A stretch of 64,000 nucleotides of DNA from an uncultured Verrucomicrobiae bacterium (GCA_963788655.1 CAWBHS010000076.1:154729-218728); one strand, 5' to 3'. Shown: positions 4,602-57,921, counted from the stretch's first letter. The notes: generated by a model from the letters alone, not told the origin. Numbers and translations: made by a program.

Positions 4602-6597
4602 CTAGGAATGCTTGAAATCCCCTTCCATCTGTAGTTCCACCCCGTTGACCACTCCACGAGTTTCAGACTGAGGCAGGATGCGGCGCCCGTTGCCGGCGCC
4701 GTAAGGTTTCACAATCATGGGGCCGATCAGATTGGAGGACTCCGCGCCGGTTGCCGCCACGTTGGGGGCGCTTGGGGGAGAACCGGTGGCCGGCCCGCGA
4801 TGCCCGTCCACCATCTGTCGCAATTCGAGCACCACCTGTTTGACCGCCTCGGCCTGGCCGACCAGTTCCTGCGCGGCGCTCGCGCTTTCTTCGGCGACTG
4901 CGGCGTTGTTTTGACTCACCTGGTCCAATTGGCTGACAGCAGTTTGAATGTGGGTGATGCCCTGGCTTTGTTCTTTCGACGCCAACGTGATCTGCCCCAT
5001 CATCGTGTCCAGGGAATTGATCGCTTGTACAATGTCATTAAAGCCGGCCCGGACCTTTTGGGCGGTGGCATCAATTTCCGCCAGCCGCTGGACGACTTTC
5101 TCGCTCTCGTTCACGCTCTGGTCACTGCGCTGGAGGGAAACCTGGATTTTGGAAGCCGTGTCTTTGGCGGCGGCGGCGCTGCGCTGGGCGAGGTTGCGCA
5201 CTTCGTCGGCCACCACGGCGAAGCCCATGCCGGCCTCGCCCGCCCGGGCCGCCTCCACCGCGGCGTTCAAGGCCAGCAGATTCGTCTGAAACGCGATCTC
5301 GTCAATGGTCTTGAGAATCTTGGCCACCTCCTGGCTGGAGCCGTGCATCTCCCGCACCACCCGGTCCATTTCGGCCACGGCGGTTTTGATGCCTTCCACC
5401 GTACCCTGCATTTCCTGCAATCGTTCGCGACCACGATCAGCCGCCGCGCGGGACTCGTGACTGAGGCGCTGGCTTTGGGCGGCGTGTTCGGCATTCCGCT
5501 GGGTCATCGTCGTCATTTCCTCGAGCGAGGCGCTGGTTTCCTGCAGCGACGCCGCCTGTTCGCTGGCGCCCTCGGCCAGTTTCTGGCTGGCGATGGACAC
5601 CTGGCCGGACGCCTCGGCGCTTTGCTCCGCGCCCTCGGCCAATCGGCCGGCGAGGCCTTGAATGTTGAGGAACACCGAGCGCGTCCCCCACCAGACCGTG
5701 CCGGTGATGACCCCCAGCGCGGCCAGGATCATCCAGATCGAGGCGTGTTTCATCGGCGCCAGTCCCGCCAGGAACTCCGCGCGGGGCGCGATGGCCATGA
5801 CGAGCCAGTGCTTGCGATCATACGTCGCGAACTGGGCCACTTTGGCTTCGCCTTTGAACACGTATTCACTGCGCCCATTGCGTTGGGCCAGGATCGTTTT
5901 GCCAAAGTCGGTACTTGGAAATGTTGACCTTGAGAATGAAGTCCAGGTCCTTGTGCGCGAGCGTCAAACCGGAGCGGTCGGTGATCGCCACATAGCCGGA
6001 TTTCCCGATGGTAATATCGCGGAGAAACGCCGTGGAAAAGGCGTTCAATTCGACGGGGGTGCCGACCATGCCCACCACCCGGTGCTGTTCATCGGTAATG
6101 GGCGCGGTGATCAGCACCACGGGACGACCGGTGGCCGGCGATTGCTGGGCGTCACCCACCCAAGCCTCTCCCGCCAGCGCCTTCTGCACGTTGATGGCGT
6201 AGGCGGGGAGCTTGCCGACTTCAATGCCTACGGATTTTCCCGCAATTGAATCCAGGAAGATGGTGCCGTTGGTGTCGGCGAGGAAGACGTTTTCATACAC
6301 GGGATGAAGCTGGTGAAACGTCGCCAACCGCGCTTTGGCGTCATCCAATTGCCGCCCGGCGCAAGCCGTCTCGAACCCGGGATCGCCACTCAAGAACTCC
6401 GCTTGGCTTTCTCGATCTGCCACCCATTGCTCCAACTCGCGCAACGCCTGTTGCACGGTGGCGGCGAGATGTTGGTCCTGCTCATGGAGGATTGAGCGCG
6501 AGGCAATGCGATACGCGTTGAACACGATTCCCATCATGATGAGGAGCATCAGCGGGGTGAGGGTGAAAATCAGTTTGGTACGAAAGTTAAACTTCAT
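4602..6597 (-). CDS. Methyl-accepting chemotaxis protein with dCache_1 sensor; one frameshift near 5910
   Basis: ORFs 5866-6597 (TM1 + dCache: [26 protein letters not shown]) and 4602-5861 (TM2 + MCP) join if one extra C is removed (TAC-C-GAC TTT GGC gives YDFG). Confidence 0.88.
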
Positions 6598-52676: not shown

Positions 52677-52943
52677 GCGCATAACGTGGTTTGTATGGTT
52701 CCGCACCAGAACGCCGGAGCTTGACCATCACTTCTAATCCGCGGCTTGGTTTTCAGCCAGGCCGCTTTTTTCCAAACTGGTGACACCGTGGCCTTTGACA
52801 TGAGGCTCTGGTTTCCCGGCAATAGGACGCCACCAGATCCGCATGGTACGAACCTCGGGTTACGAGAATACCCGCTCACTCTTCTCCTTGTTTCCCCTCG
52901 GAACATCCGTGATTGGGGCCAGTCTTAAATCGGTGTGCGCATT

Positions 52944-53088
52944 CGCGTCAGCGTTTGGAGTGCGCCCGGCTTGCCGGCGCTTTCGTGAGGAAAACGAGAG
53001 CCAAAGATCTTCGTGCGATTCATTCTTTTGTGGACAGCCTGCTTCAAACGCAAGCGGGAGCAAGCTCCACGCACCAAACGCTTCGCGA
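52944..53088. repeat. REPIN-like inverted pair, family A, copy 3
   Basis: gcgtttggagtgcgcccggcttgccggcgcttt ... aagcgggagcaagctccacgcaccaaacgcttcgcg. Confidence 0.75.
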
Positions 53089-54026: not shown

Positions 54027-54276
54027 GCGCTCAAGGTAGCTATCGTTCGCCAGTCCCGCCATTGTTTACCATGGTAAAAGGCCTTGGCTTTGTGCCAGGT
54101 TGAGCATGCACCCCGAAGTACCCAGCAACGTGCTGCCGGCGTCTCGCCGGCAGAACCAAATACAGATGCAACGTGTTGCTTCGGCAAGCATGCGGGGGCC
54201 GTAAAAACCTCCCGGCGAGCCCTCAGCGCGGCATCCGGCCGCCGGGCGGCCCTATCGCGATCTCACGCAGGCTGCC

Positions 54277-55872
54277 TCAGCCGGTATCGGGGGGAGACAG
54301 CGCCTGCTCGTAATTCCAGGGGAGCCACCGGGTCGGATGCTCCAGCGCTTCTTTGGCGTGGCGTTGGAGGGCGTTGAGATAATCCAGTGGATTGGCGGCG
54401 CATAGTCGGCAGGTGTGGATCAAGCTCATGAACCTATCGCCCAATCGGGCGCCGTTCTGAGTCTTGTAGCCCATCGAGTTTTTCCGGTGGAGAATGGCCA
54501 TTTTGAGCGCGCGTTCGCAGATATTGTTATCCAGGGGCGCCCCGGCTTGGCGCAGGAATAGGGTCAAAGGCTCCCAGTGTCTGAGCATGTAGCCGAACGC
54601 CTGACCCAGTCCGGAGTTAGGTTCCACCAATTTCTGCTCCAACCGTTGGCGCATCCACTGATGGAGTTCGTCCATGATTTTCTGACTGTGCTCCTGGTGG
54701 AACCGAAGCCGGGCCTCGGGCGAGAGCCCGGCTTTCTTGGCCTGCGCCTCGTGTTGGTAAACCTCGCCCAGACGTTCCAACACGTGCTGGCATTCCTGCG
54801 GGAAGTTTTGGGCGAGGTCGACAAACTGCCGTCGGCCATGGCTCAAACAGTGGGCGAGGAGGCTCTGGAACTCCTTGGAGGGGTTGCGCGAGAGCGCGTC
54901 GCACATCTGGATGGGGGGTGAGGAGTGGGCGGCGCGGCGAGCGAGCAACTGGTCCAGGTTTTCGCCGGCGTGACGATGTCCGGTCACAAACAGCGCGATC
55001 GTGTGGTCCGCGACCTGGGAGATGAGGCCGGTGGTGAAGATCCCGGTGCGCTCTGGCCTCTCAGCGGCCGGGTCAGCATCCCGGGTCAGGCTTTGCACCC
55101 GCAGGGTGGTGTCGTCGTTGTGGATCACCTTGCCTTGAGCGGCCAGCGTGATCAAAGCCTCATGCACCGGTTCGAGCGCTTGGCCGGCTTGGGCCATGAG
55201 TTCCCATTGCGTCGAGGCCGGCAGACGCACGCCCAGGTCGGCCTGCATTCGGTCCAACCGGTAGTGGGGCACGCCCGTGCCAAAGCGCAAATACCCCAGC
55301 ATGGAGCCGACCTGCGGATCATATTTGCTCAGCCCCGCTTCCTTGGGGGCCGGGGCGGTGAAGAGCTGGCCGCAGAGGCTGCAGCGTAGCTTCTCCAGTT
55401 CGAACCGGGTCGCGGCAAACAACGGTTGGGCGGTAATGCGCACCAGTTGTCCGAGCTGTTTGAGCGCGGAGAGTTTGCCTTTTTTGCAGCCGGGACAAGC
55501 ATCGCCCGGGCGGAGTTGCGGAGGGGGCACCCGCACCCGTTTAGCTCCGGGGTAGCCTGCCGCGGCCGTGCGGCCGTGGCCGTGGCGCTTGGGCCGAGGT
55601 GCGGCTGCCGTTGCGGGGGGTTGGGAACTGGCAGGCGGCGGCGGAAAGAGTTGCTGGGTCTTTTCGGTTTCCGCACCGAAGATCAGTCGCTGGAGCCGGC
55701 TCAGGCTGGTCTGCTTGGCCTCGATGACTCCCATGACCCAGTGGAGGGTGCGCAAGGACTTCGCGACCAACTGGTACATCTCCGCCGGCAACAGCCCCGC
55801 CAACTTGGCCAGCAACTCTTCCAGTTGCGTGGGGCTCAGCGTGATGATCTCCGGAGCACGGTTCTTAGCCAC
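54277..55872 (-). CDS. tnpC: IS66-family DDE transposase TnpC
   Basis: Leucine-zipper region with RLIFGAETEK, zinc finger CPGC..CSLC, HNDDT, MCDA, CLSHGRRQF, PLDNNICERALK...RKNS and SLIHTC...NPLDYL. Confidence 0.92.
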   Translation of the reverse strand: MAKNRAPEIITLSPTQLEELLAKLAGLLPAEMYQLVAKSLRTLHWVMGVIEAKQTSLSRLQRLIFGAETEKTQQLFPPPPASSQPPATAAAPRPKRHGHGRTAAAGYPGAKRVRVPPPQLRPGDACPGCKKGKLSALKQLGQLVRITAQPLFAATRFELEKLRCSLCGQLFTAPAPKEAGLSKYDPQVGSMLGYLRFGTGVPHYRLDRMQADLGVRLPASTQWELMAQAGQALEPVHEALITLAAQGKVIHNDDTTLRVQSLTRDADPAAERPERTGIFTTGLISQVADHTIALFVTGHRHAGENLDQLLARRAAHSSPPIQMCDALSRNPSKEFQSLLAHCLSHGRRQFVDLAQNFPQECQHVLERLGEVYQHEAQAKKAGLSPEARLRFHQEHSQKIMDELHQWMRQRLEQKLVEPNSGLGQAFGYMLRHWEPLTLFLRQAGAPLDNNICERALKMAILHRKNSMGYKTQNGARLGDRFMSLIHTCRLCAANPLDYLNALQRHAKEALEHPTRWLPWNYEQALSPPDTG

Positions 55873-56752
55873 AGCCCGCTCCGCAAAGTTGGCGGCGAAA
55901 GTCCGGCCGCAGCGGATAAGCCCACAACTGCTTGAGCGAGCGATTGGGCCGCTTGGTCTGATCGTCTTTGCCCCGCCCGGTGGTCAACCCCAGATAGAGC
56001 CAGTGGGCGGCCCGATAGCAGGTGCCGGCGAAGCGTTCCGGGTCGATAAACGTCTCCAGCAAGTAAACCGGATGCTCATAGAGCGCTTGCCAGTCGGCGG
56101 CAATCCGCCCCGCCAGCCGGGCCAATACATGGCTGGCCAAGCAGGGCACCTTCACCCAGGGCAGGATGAGAAAGCGGGTATTGTAGGCCAACAGGTGAAT
56201 CTGGGCTCGGCGTTGCGGGGCCGACCAACCGATGAAGCGGTCGCGCGCTCCCAGATGACGGGGAGCCGAAGACCAGGCCAAAGCAGCCACGGGTTGTCCC
56301 TGGGCGTAAATCAGGTATTTCAGATGCTCGCCGACCGGCCGGGTATAACCTAAGTAATGGTGGGCCTCCAGGAGGCTGCCGAAGAGTTTTTCGGCCGCCG
56401 TGCGTCGCACCTGGCGGATCTCCAACGCCCCCAACTGCGCCAAAGAACACGCCAACGGTGCGCTCACCCGCTCCGCTGGGCGCGTGGGGGCTCGGTGCTG
56501 CGTGGCATTGTTGGGTGGGCAAAACCGCTGCGCCGGCAGTCGAATGTGACCCGCTCGGTGCAACCCCAGCATCAGGCTCCGGGCGACCATGTCGCGCGGA
56601 CGGCCGTTGGGCTGCCTCCAGTTCCAGGCCGCACAGAGCTCGGCCGAGAGCCGCCGCCGACTTAAACCGGGATGAGCGGCGATCAACTGCCGGATAAATT
56701 CAATTTCCTGGGCGCTAACCTTGCGGCCCCGGTAAACAAACTCGTTCTGCAC
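55865..56752 (-). CDS. DUF4338 (Druantia DruA-like) protein inside the IS66 element
   Basis: HHYLGY..PVGEHLKY, RDRFIGW, NTRFLILPWVKVPCLASHVL, DW..LY..PVYLLETFID..RF.GTCYRAAHW..LG.T.GRG, plus an N-terminal SRRRLSAELC..WNW.QPNG segment. Confidence 0.85.
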   Translation of the reverse strand: MQNEFVYRGRKVSAQEIEFIRQLIAAHPGLSRRRLSAELCAAWNWRQPNGRPRDMVARSLMLGLHRAGHIRLPAQRFCPPNNATQHRAPTRPAERVSAPLACSLAQLGALEIRQVRRTAAEKLFGSLLEAHHYLGYTRPVGEHLKYLIYAQGQPVAALAWSSAPRHLGARDRFIGWSAPQRRAQIHLLAYNTRFLILPWVKVPCLASHVLARLAGRIAADWQALYEHPVYLLETFIDPERFAGTCYRAAHWLYLGLTTGRGKDDQTKRPNRSLKQLWAYPLRPDFRRQLCGAGCG

Positions 56753-56830
56753 GAGCGCCAGTTTAGGCGATCAAACATGGAACGCAAGCCCAAGGGTGAT
56801 GTTTTTTTCGCTCCAGCCCGGGGCGCTCAC

Positions 56831-57193
56831 TTAAGCTGCCGGGGCAATCGGCCGCCACCTCGGAGCGGCTTGGGCGTGGTTGGGGTGGCCGTTCCAGATC
56901 AGTAACTGGAGTTGATGCACCTCCAAACCCAAGGTGGGCTGCTGGCCCCCGCTGGGCCACCAGGCGAAGCGTCCCTGCGAAAGCCGTTTCTGGCAGAGCC
57001 AAAAACCTTGGCCGTCATACACGAGGATCTTCAGGGCGCGACGACGACGGTTGGAGAACACGAAGAGCGCGCCGGCCATCGGGTCCAGGTTAAGCCTCTG
57101 CCGGCAAACCTGCACCAGCCCGTCAATGCCTTTGCGAAAATCTACCGGCTCCACCGCCAGCAACAAGCGCATCTGCGGCGTGAGCTGAATCAT
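56831..57193 (-). CDS. tnpB: IS66 accessory protein TnpB
   Basis: PVDFRKGIDGL...GALFVFSNRRR..LKILVYDGQGFWLCQKRLSQGRFAW. Confidence 0.95.
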   Translation of the reverse strand: MIQLTPQMRLLLAVEPVDFRKGIDGLVQVCRQRLNLDPMAGALFVFSNRRRRALKILVYDGQGFWLCQKRLSQGRFAWWPSGGQQPTLGLEVHQLQLLIWNGHPNHAQAAPRWRPIAPAA

Positions 57194-57609
57194 GCACGCT
57201 GCCTCCAGAGCCCTTGGGCCAAGGCCAGAGCGGCGGCGCTGTCAGTTTGCGCCAGCCGCAGGGTCAGTTTCGCACCCTGGCGATCCTCCAGTTCCATGAC
57301 CCACTGCGAGTTAGGGCAGGCCGTCATCGGCACCTCGACAAACTCCGCAGCGATCGCGTCAGAACGAGGAGCTTGCGCAGCCGCAGTGGCCACCAGCCGG
57401 TGCTTGAGGGCGGTGTAATTGACCCTCAGAACCTGGGCGACCCGGCTCAGTCCATAACGTCGCGCCAACCTCACCATCGCTCGCCAGAGTGGTTCCGGGA
57501 TTGGTTCCCGATGTTTACGCCTCTGGCGCCAAGCGGTCAGGGCTGGTTGAACCCGCTCAATCGCGGCGGCAAATGTGGGATCCGATTTGGTGGTCGTCTT
57601 CGCTGTCAT
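57190..57609 (-). CDS. IS66 TnpA-like helix-turn-helix accessory protein
   Basis: WRQRRK..PIPEPLWRA.V.LARRYGLSRVAQVLRVNYTALK...FVEV; 4-nt overlap with tnpB. Confidence 0.75.
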   Translation of the reverse strand: MTAKTTTKSDPTFAAAIERVQPALTAWRQRRKHREPIPEPLWRAMVRLARRYGLSRVAQVLRVNYTALKHRLVATAAAQAPRSDAIAAEFVEVPMTACPNSQWVMELEDRQGAKLTLRLAQTDSAAALALAQGLWRQRA

Positions 57610-57672
57610 AATCTGGCGCGAAGACTACCGCGGCGGCCGAAACGCCGTCACACACACTTGCCGAAGCAACAC

Positions 57673-57921
57673 GATGTGCTGGCTACCGCTTACGTTAAAC
57701 CGGGAAAAATGTTGATTGCCCTCGCCAGTTGGGCGAAGGAGACAACAGCGGTTCATCTGCGTTATGATTGGTCGGCATTGGGATTGGATCCGAGTCGCGC
57801 CAGCCTGCGCGCTCCGGCTATCCCAGGTTTCCAGGAGGAACGCGAATTCAAATCCGATGCGGCAATCGCGGTGCCGCCCGGACGCGGTTGGTTGATCCTT
57901 CTCCAGGAACAATCGGAATAA
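57673..57921 (+). pseudogene. 3' remnant of a gene truncated at the IS end (resembles the C-terminus of DUF6067-type glycoside-hydrolase-like proteins)
   Basis: Starting right at the IR: DVLATAYVKPGKMLIALASWA...DWSALGLDP...APAIPGFQ...VPPGRGWLILL*. No start codon. Confidence 0.6.

Follow-up and report, generated by a model that had tools for sequence, protein, structure and literature searches.

The IS66-family element of a 64,000-nucleotide stretch of DNA from an uncultured Verrucomicrobiae bacterium (GCA_963788655.1 CAWBHS010000076.1:154729-218728; hereafter the window, meaning the whole stretch that was analysed) almost certainly belongs, as an intact copy that was active recently, to a widespread subgroup of IS66 elements with four genes, in which a gene for a DUF4338 protein forms part of the core, being inherited together with tnpC and translationally coupled to it. 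The explanation that best accounts for the whole of the data, and which on balance seems probable to us, joins this subgroup to a function, namely that the DUF4338 protein would be a catalytic accessory factor of transposition. Insertion sequences (ISs) are taken as minimal entities, composed of a transposase to which, in IS66, two poorly understood helpers are added. Canonical IS66 elements (IS66, IS679, ISRm14) present the order tnpA-tnpB-tnpC, and the family is characterized by terminal inverted repeats (IRs) of about 15–30 bp, starting with GTAA, and by an 8-bp target-site duplication. The window element resembles them in its TnpC with a DDE domain, in its TnpB, in a gene at the tnpA position that overlaps tnpB by 4 nt, in its short IRs and in the 8-bp duplications seen in two of five relatives inspected, and it departs from them in the fourth gene between tnpB and tnpC, in its GTGT rather than GTAA ends and in its length of 3.5 kb.

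The place of the DUF4338 gene in the core is supported, firstly, by its distribution. A word-indexed protein search gave at least 8000 matches at E ≤ 1e-3, the best 120 of which are all at least 73% identical and lie in many cases on contigs of ~3.4–3.8 kb, that is, of the length of the element itself; an exhaustive search of representatives at 50% identity gave 9055 clusters at E ≤ 1e-3, and 838 at E ≤ 1e-30. From contigs of one genome per species 48 loci were taken, and in 31 of them tnpB, the DUF4338 gene and tnpC follow one another in this order on one strand, in several phyla and with protein identities of 55–93%; a further 8 are cut by the end of the contig, the visible half being consistent with the same order, and the other 9 (L017, L024, L032, L040, L046, L047, L049, L050, L051) have been truncated or rearranged, or lie in a different context. 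The labels of contigs longer than 20 kb place the hosts in the Acidobacteriota, Verrucomicrobiota, Planctomycetota and “delta proteobacteria”; short contigs are not reliably binned. The junction between the DUF4338 stop and the tnpC start is also recurrent: among 39 loci, an overlap of 8 nt is seen in 9 and one of 4 nt in 17, while tnpC starts 1–3 nt after the stop in 3 and the remaining 10 are broken or not callable. The nine loci with the 8-nt overlap form a group at least 70% identical, in which the window (55865–55872) is included.

An observation of a separate kind is that of L006:6001-8472, where the DUF4338 stop has been lost and the frame continues into tnpC, giving a single in-frame fusion open reading frame (ORF) of 823 aa; in L008, its sister copy from that genome, the DUF4338 gene and tnpC are separate and overlapping, and tnpC is interrupted.

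Secondly, the transposase itself leads to the same gene. TnpC matches at E ≤ 1e-20 are present in 14 of the 401 genomes examined of the window's phylum. The initial annotation had foreseen that close relatives of TnpC might lack the DUF4338 gene, as would be expected of a one-off insertion, but this expectation fails: all the TnpC relatives at least 46% identical with upstream sequence (L054-L057) have it, and the gene is absent, leaving tnpB-tnpC, from relatives that are at most 28% identical (L061-L063, L065, L069, L070, L072). When 34 TnpC sequences are placed in a quick maximum-likelihood tree, the four-gene type constitutes a clade of 26 rows (Shimodaira–Hasegawa-like approximate likelihood ratio test, SH-aLRT, 100), separated by a branch of 1.53 from the sampled three-gene IS66 elements, to whose TnpC that of the window shows no more than the 28% identity mentioned. 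The distances between DUF4338 proteins and between TnpC proteins of 23 loci are correlated (Mantel r 0.79, 0 of 2000 permutations as high), and in 98% of 253 pairs DUF4338 is the better conserved protein (mean distance 0.39 vs. 0.51). The ratios of nonsynonymous to synonymous substitution (dN/dS, by the NG86 method) lie between 0.09 and 0.23 for DUF4338 (28 pairs), between 0.135 and 0.24 for tnpC (6 pairs) and between 0.06 and 0.21 for tnpB (15 pairs), values which indicate that the DUF4338 gene is under purifying selection.

The three-gene composition of canonical IS66 elements could still suggest that a passenger gene was captured once, between tnpB and tnpC, in the copy of the window only. 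The recurrence of the gene order in the 31 loci of several phyla, in addition to the co-divergence and the purifying selection, refutes this alternative, to which we concede practically no probability. In other words, what the initial annotation had proposed, a distinct IS66 subgroup with DUF4338 as a core gene, is upheld by the order of the loci, the recurrent overlap, the fully supported clade, the correlated distances and the selection. In the full-text literature, ISfinder being outside the scope of this search, no description was found of a DUF4338 gene in IS66 or in other IS families.

The components of the element are gathered in Table 1, and all the features first read from the sequence (16-bp IRs, four genes, 8-nt overlap, GTG start and GTGT ends) lie at the coordinates originally assigned to them.

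Table 1. Coordinates in the window of the IS66-family element, of its ends and genes, and of the interrupted gene on its right side.
Feature	Position	Strand	Description
IS66-family element	54173..57672	genes on -	3,500 bp, four genes between the IR pair
Terminal IR, tnpC end	54173..54188		GTGTTGCTTCGGCAAG; perfect over 16 bp, ~20/24 with imperfect extension
Terminal IR, tnpA end	57657..57672		reverse complement of 54173-54188
orf1 (tnpA-like)	57609..57190	-	139 aa; 4-nt overlap with tnpB
tnpB	57193..56831	-	120 aa; PF05717, 9.4e-30; NF033819, 1.8e-28, 98.3 bits (cut-off 50)
DUF4338 gene	56752..55865	-	295 aa; PF14236 “DruA,” 6.8e-30
tnpC	55872..54277	-	531 aa; GTG start; PF03050, 1.9e-50; NF033517, 6.5e-69, 232.9 bits (cut-off 180)
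GH123-like gene, 3′ remnant	57673..57921	+	last ~83 codons; PF19543 GH123_N, profile positions 890-968 of 969

The arms of the IRs (54169–54188 and 57657–57676) coincide over 20 nt at 95%, around the perfect core that begins with GTGT, and the motif recurs at the ends of six relatives (L005, L006, L012, L018, L033, L038), GTGT being the start of the IR both in the window element and in the relatives whose IRs were found. The IRs were sought in 22 loci by a script that requires an exact seed of 12 nt at no more than 400 bp from the genes, and in 13 of the 22 no pair was found, many of these loci being cut by the ends of contigs; this outcome reflects the way the script works and does not show that IRs are absent. 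The element has a GC content of 0.637, against 0.596 and 0.594 in its flanks, and a scan for promoters of the sigma-70 type and for terminators gave none above the shuffled expectation. Between tnpB and the start of the DUF4338 gene there is a spacer of 78 nt. An alignment of 16 TnpC sequences shows invariant cysteine and acidic columns, and the N-termini of relatives align from the GTG start of the window gene. The first gene, orf1, has no match in Pfam or NCBIfam, and only one of 19 homologues matches IS66_ISRel24_TnpA, weakly (E 0.025); a profile of 21 homologues, compared with six IS66 proteins of the tnpA position, gives an hhalign E of 9.3e-5 (probability 59%, 97 columns), and judged by this comparison, with which its position and its 4-nt overlap with tnpB agree, orf1 is probably a divergent IS66 TnpA, recognizable by profile comparison only.

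The element is intact and has been recently mobile. Its recent movement is deduced from an identical second copy and from unoccupied target sites within the same assembly (115 contigs, 86% complete, 5.6% contamination). There are exactly two copies in this assembly, the second of which, at C89:2098-5601, is 100% identical over positions 54172–57675 of the window. To the right, the window element adjoins the remnant of a GH123-like gene which is intact on contig C96 (36259–37670), where it crosses the exact point of insertion, so that empty and occupied alleles coexist; because C96 represents the unoccupied allele, the right end of the element is fixed at 57672. The copy on C89 is found within another IS, which we call type 2, and uninterrupted type-2 copies on C62, C25, C102 and C86 constitute empty sites, the one on C62 defining, within 2 nt, where the element ends on the left. 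As for the left flank of the window, it belongs to a different locus from that of the GH123-like gene.

What weighs against this account is that no matching target duplication exists at either copy and that the four junctions do not pair up, the flanks on C89 repeating 199 bp (1899–2097 equal to 5602–5800, 99.5% identical) instead of 8 bp. These mismatched flanks would be explained more simply by chimeric joining across a repeat of 3.5 kb, or by a mixture of strains, in a metagenome assembly. A new mechanism of transposition, which such flanks might have evoked, was rejected in favor of these simpler causes. The 199-bp duplication of C89 may, for its part, have arisen when two insertions were joined chimerically in the assembly, or it may be a genuine junction of an unusual kind. 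Among five relatives inspected by eye, 8-bp duplications abutting GTGT...ACAC were seen in two, L006 (GGTGGTGC) and L018 (AATACATC), and not in the other three (L012, L033, L038).

With regard to the DUF4338 protein, the profile scan that the initial annotation had recommended for its ORF was carried out and identified PF14236 (formerly DUF4338) with 104.7 bits, against a cut-off of 27, over profile positions 45–225 of 297. An AlphaFold2 model made from an alignment of 62 sequences (pLDDT, a predicted local distance difference test score, 90.7; predicted template modeling score, pTM, 0.82) predicts a beta-beta-alpha-alpha-beta-beta-alpha domain at residues ~1–75, a linker of low confidence at 76–103 and an alpha/beta domain of the GNAT type at 104–290. 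In one paper DUF4338 is already referred to as a GNAT domain (PMC10853773). The first match of the model in the PDB with Foldseek is Mom of phage Mu (8bv8, E 4.6e-7), which is likewise the first with VIA-align (Z 15.3 over 170 residues, root-mean-square deviation 4.3, vs. 13.2 for the next GNAT), and Mom-like phage proteins appear also among the matches in predicted viral structures. The Pfam Mom profile (PF25680) recognizes 26 of the 62 members of the family at E ≤ 0.1, the best at 1.7e-6.

The likeness extends to the predicted active site. The motifs H-Y, Ser, F-x-D-x-E-R, G and Y-x-A-x-N-W/F align, respectively, to H58/Y59, S124, D149-R151, G156 and Y159-F164 of Mom, and in both hhalign alignments H132/Y133 are paired with Mom H58/Y59, S207 with S124, D237 with D149, R240 with R151 and Y246 with Y159. 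A work on Mom attributes to R111, S124 and R151 an essential role, and to H58, Y59, D149 and Y159 an important one, in an activity that uses glycyl-tRNA to modify adenine in DNA and that requires an HTH-like insertion (~175–209; PMC13219725). Six of these seven residues align to positions of DUF4338, and in 27 domains, which are linked to six or more transposase families, five of the six persist in no fewer than 26. In all 27 of these domains H132, R170, R193, S207, E233, Y246, W251, G255 and G259 are invariant, an acidic residue (D/E171) is likewise present in 27, and Y133 and D/E237 are each conserved in 26.

Several results, however, weigh against so close a kinship with Mom. The window protein itself reaches only E 0.029 with the Pfam Mom profile (14.5 bits, below the cut-off of 27.1), and the hhalign probabilities are low, both against Mu Mom alone (1.6%, E 0.031) and against a profile of 28 proteins of the Mom family (6.9%, E 0.0053, 153 columns); moreover, the profile of the DUF4338 family, searched against PDB sequences, gave only two rows at chance level (E 1.3 and 1.5). 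At the level of residues, Mom R111 falls in a gap of two residues after P198, the invariant R193 and R170 being candidates that do not align with it, and R240 is kept in only 17 of the 27 domains. The HTH-like insertion of Mom has no counterpart in the hhalign alignment, its place being taken by the N-terminal winged-helix-like domain, the assignment of which is in turn weak, given that Foldseek with this domain alone found nothing at E ≤ 1e-3. Modeled alone, the domain has a pLDDT of 82 and a best Z of 6.1, most of its matches being winged-helix DNA binders with Z of 4.5–5.5, and it is probably a winged-helix-like, DNA-binding domain. With the predicted fold and the aligned active-site motifs in its favor, Mu Mom is, as far as the model allows one to judge, a closer functional analogue than DruA of the Druantia systems. 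The two differ in their genetic context, since Mom is the product of a late phage gene that accompanies com, and the window protein belongs to the operon of an IS and has relatives fused to transposases.

If this analogy is accepted, the DUF4338 protein could be a catalytically active accessory factor of transposition, a proposal to which we give a tentative credence, somewhat short of an even chance. A role in transposition is argued from the fusion of DUF4338 to transposases (see below). What was observed is the gene order, the geometry of the coupling, the co-divergence, the selection, the modeled fold, the conserved active-site columns and the association, by adjacency or by fusion, with several transposase families; the enzymatic activity, the substrate and any effect on transposition are inferred. 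The N-terminal winged-helix-like domain would bring the protein to DNA, the Mom-like GNAT domain would modify a nucleic-acid substrate, situated at or near the element, by transfer of an acyl or aminoacyl group, and this would license or regulate the transposase, which is encoded by the overlapping reading frame downstream. By analogy with Mom, the donor may be an aminoacyl-tRNA rather than acetyl-CoA.

The same analogy lends itself to another interpretation, in which the protein would be a cargo of the Mom type, hypermodifying the DNA of the carrier replicon against restriction or nucleases for the benefit of the element or of the host, and outside the chemistry of transposition. Mom is, after all, the best structural match and shares the alignment of six of the seven active-site residues, Mu is itself a transposing element, and the spacer after tnpB could allow the gene its own expression signals. 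However, in-frame fusions with transposases of several families and a conserved overlap of stop and start are unexpected in a cargo that stands by itself, the gene surpasses the transposase in conservation and diverges together with it, and a chromosomal IS gains little from anti-restriction. We therefore see this interpretation as rather improbable.

We attribute a similarly small probability to the idea of a regulator or sensor, that is, of a GNAT protein that would acetylate the transposase or a host factor, or bind a metabolite or tRNA, with its N-terminal domain on the ends of the IS, in such a way that transposition would be tuned or inhibited and the nucleic acid would remain unmodified. 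The conserved residues fit the Mom set and not the usual signature for acetyl-CoA, whose Q/R-x-x-G-x-G/A motif was not seen by eye in the DUF4338 alignment, and 8 of 10 fusions of the ISAs1 type dispense with the N-terminal domain and keep the catalytic columns. This idea draws its strength from the GNAT matches at Z 12–13, most of which are N-acetyltransferases of proteins or small molecules, from the resemblance of the N-terminal domain to the winged-helix repressors MecI, BlaI, LexA and MarR (Z 4.5–5.5), and from the position of the gene, directly upstream of tnpC and coupled to it.

The proposal of a catalytic accessory factor is linked to the company in which DUF4338 is found beyond IS66. 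Among the representatives, 12 of 17 longer proteins have a transposase, or a DNA-binding domain of the transposase type, next to the DruA domain of Pfam, the fused types being Tn5-type, IS66 DDE, DDE_Tnp_1, ISAs1-type (DDE_Tnp_1_assoc), DDE_5 and HTH_29. PF14236 is present in 34 of the 401 genomes of the window's phylum. Thirty loci were retrieved, from which four repeated four-gene IS66 loci and a fragment of 93 aa (L092) were set aside, leaving 25; 42 of their 51 ORFs were scanned, nine short ones being dropped. A transposase is adjacent or fused to DUF4338 in 20 of these 25 loci (ISAs1-type in 13, IS66, DDE_5 and Tn5-type in 2 each, and UPF0236 in 1), no type is assignable in the other five (L079, L081, L085, L089, L091), and Druantia genes stand beside DUF4338 in none of the 25. 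In a tree of 39 GNAT domains the label of transposase family requires 7 changes (the minimum being 6) compared with a mean of 18.9 when shuffled, none of 200 shuffles being as low, and the DUF4338 proteins of the four-gene IS66 elements form a clade with SH-aLRT 99. In a collection of plasmids two records contain a relative, neither of the four-gene type: one is beside an integrase and an IS91 transposase, and the other is annotated as “ISAs1 family transposase” (WP_216644545.1, NZ_CP020371.1). With fused transposases such as the latter the window protein shares the same DUF4338 domain and the same invariant columns, differing in that the domain is there the N-terminal part of the polypeptide and in the window a separate, translationally coupled protein.

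A more general hypothesis, which we consider unlikely in its entirety, is that DDE transposases from at least five families (IS66, ISAs1, Tn5/IS4-type, DDE_5 and UPF0236-type) would have in DUF4338 a general catalytic partner, which would covalently modify DNA at transposon ends or targets by a Mom-like chemistry that would perhaps depend on aminoacyl-tRNA, and that the DruA of Druantia would be an exapted descendant without the catalytic residues. Against the proposal of a catalytic accessory factor counts the absence of the N-terminal domain from the eight ISAs1-type fusions mentioned above, all derived from loci; the two database fusions, P0229 and P0267, that complete the ten aligned retain it. 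A conserved, enzyme-like gene with an active site of the Mom type, found in association with several unrelated transposases, points to a biochemical step, or a form of control, that has gone unrecognized in transposition.

The relationship with Druantia has to be considered separately, since the initial annotation had taken the gene for the DruA component of this anti-phage system, an identity that was not supported. The PADLOC models of DruA do not match the window protein even at E ≤ 10 and touch its relatives over ~50 residues only (1.6e-5 to 1.8e-4), and the four DruA1-model proteins compared are only distant homologues, without the invariant H-Y and Ser. The DruA1 model matched in 6 of 400 genomes of another class, and one of the loci, L112, contains a confirmed Druantia I operon, with DruA1 (1e-196), DruD1 and DruE1, and is the only neighborhood of a DruA-model protein that was fully scanned. 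A profile of four DruA1-model proteins, that of L112 among them, aligns with the transposon-linked family along the entire GNAT domain (hhalign probability 96.9%, E 1.5e-10, 178 columns); the four are longer, of 383–460 aa, with large inserts, and in them H132, Y133, N191 and S207 are replaced, R170 and D171 (the RD..GW motif) being kept. From these alignments it can be said that the DUF4338 and DruA groups are homologous, that the window protein is not an orthologue of DruA, and that the four DruA-model proteins have lost the Mom-like residues. In comparison with DruA of type I, then, the window protein has in common the homology of the GNAT domain and the R170/D171 motif, and is distinguished by its size and by the lack of genes like those of the DruA-...-DruD-DruE operon in which one of the compared proteins is found.

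That no other dru genes would be found nearby, as was first noted, proved correct: the 13 large ORFs at 41.4–63.8 kb are housekeeping genes. Across the assembly as a whole (86% complete) there is no match to the DruA1 model, and to the DruE1 model, which also matches in 10 of 14 control genomes, there is only a partial one of 105 positions on another contig. These results bear on the idea that the gene is a module of defense or addiction carried by the IS, either a stand-alone anti-phage protein similar to DruA or a TacT/AtaT-type GNAT toxin, which would acetylate aminoacyl-tRNA and thereby stabilize the element. The Pfam name, the homology with the four DruA1-model proteins, the existence of GNAT toxins that act on charged tRNA and the use of charged tRNA by Mom all lean toward it. 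Nevertheless, PADLOC gives no match, no Druantia system appears nearby or in the assembly, the DruA-model proteins are without the invariant H-Y and Ser, no conserved small ORF resembling an antitoxin was noticed beside the gene, and 20 of the 25 further loci are linked to transposases and none to Druantia, in view of which we judge this role highly unlikely.

A link between the transposon-linked family and the origin of Druantia is possible, in either direction, as far as the sequences indicate. The words GNAT, IS66 and transposon are absent from the YprA/Druantia preprint, and the loss of the conserved residues in the DruA-model homologues provides a testable idea for the DruA of Druantia, which has lacked an explanation. 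The samples examined suggest that PF14236 also takes in many transposase-linked proteins, and under the Pfam label “DruA” thousands of IS copies will be mistaken for defense genes.

Other arrangements of DUF4338 with transposases were encountered in the course of the analysis. In the type-2 element, located at C62:~167-2860, C25, C102, C89:1-2097 and C86 (at least five contigs, 98.9–100% identical, mostly at contig ends), a DUF4338 gene whose product is 38% identical to that of the window overlaps a tnpC rich in coiled coils (22% identical), tnpA and tnpB being absent. A third design, in the same assembly at C113:14631-18025 and C111:10454-12984, has the order tnpA-tnpB-DUF4338-tnpC, with a TnpA of 119 aa that contains a clear helix-turn-helix; its TnpC is 25% and its DUF4338 protein 41% identical to those of the window, and in the quick tree its TnpC falls among those of three-gene IS66 elements. 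Forcing all the DUF4338-bearing TnpC proteins into one clade costs 22.9 log-likelihood units (approximately unbiased test, p-AU 0.042), a borderline value for a group that was named after the tree had been seen. In L076:152-2097 the IS66-type order is reversed, with tnpC first and the DUF4338 gene beginning at the tnpC stop, and P0207 is a fusion that corresponds to this order, with its DUF4338 domain at the C-terminus. One closed genome (G023:C1) contains five identical copies of PF14236, which may belong to another carrier element; in the one of these five loci that was fetched (L079), the ORF filter showed no recognizable adjoining transposase.

Three studies (of wetland, soil and sediment) provided RNA libraries whose assembled contigs, 90–99% alike, cover positions 54082–57747, the DUF4338 gene included, and span almost none of the flanks of the element; these contigs are suggestive of the expression of relatives and are not counted here as evidence. 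Finally, two repeats are found in the left flank of the window, a GC-rich palindrome of ~30 nt at 54125–54155, 17 bp from the end of the IS, and a sequence of ~43 nt at 52943–52985, each of which is repeated, with 92–100% identity, on some 20 other contigs or more, in the manner of repetitive extragenic palindromic (REP) sequences.

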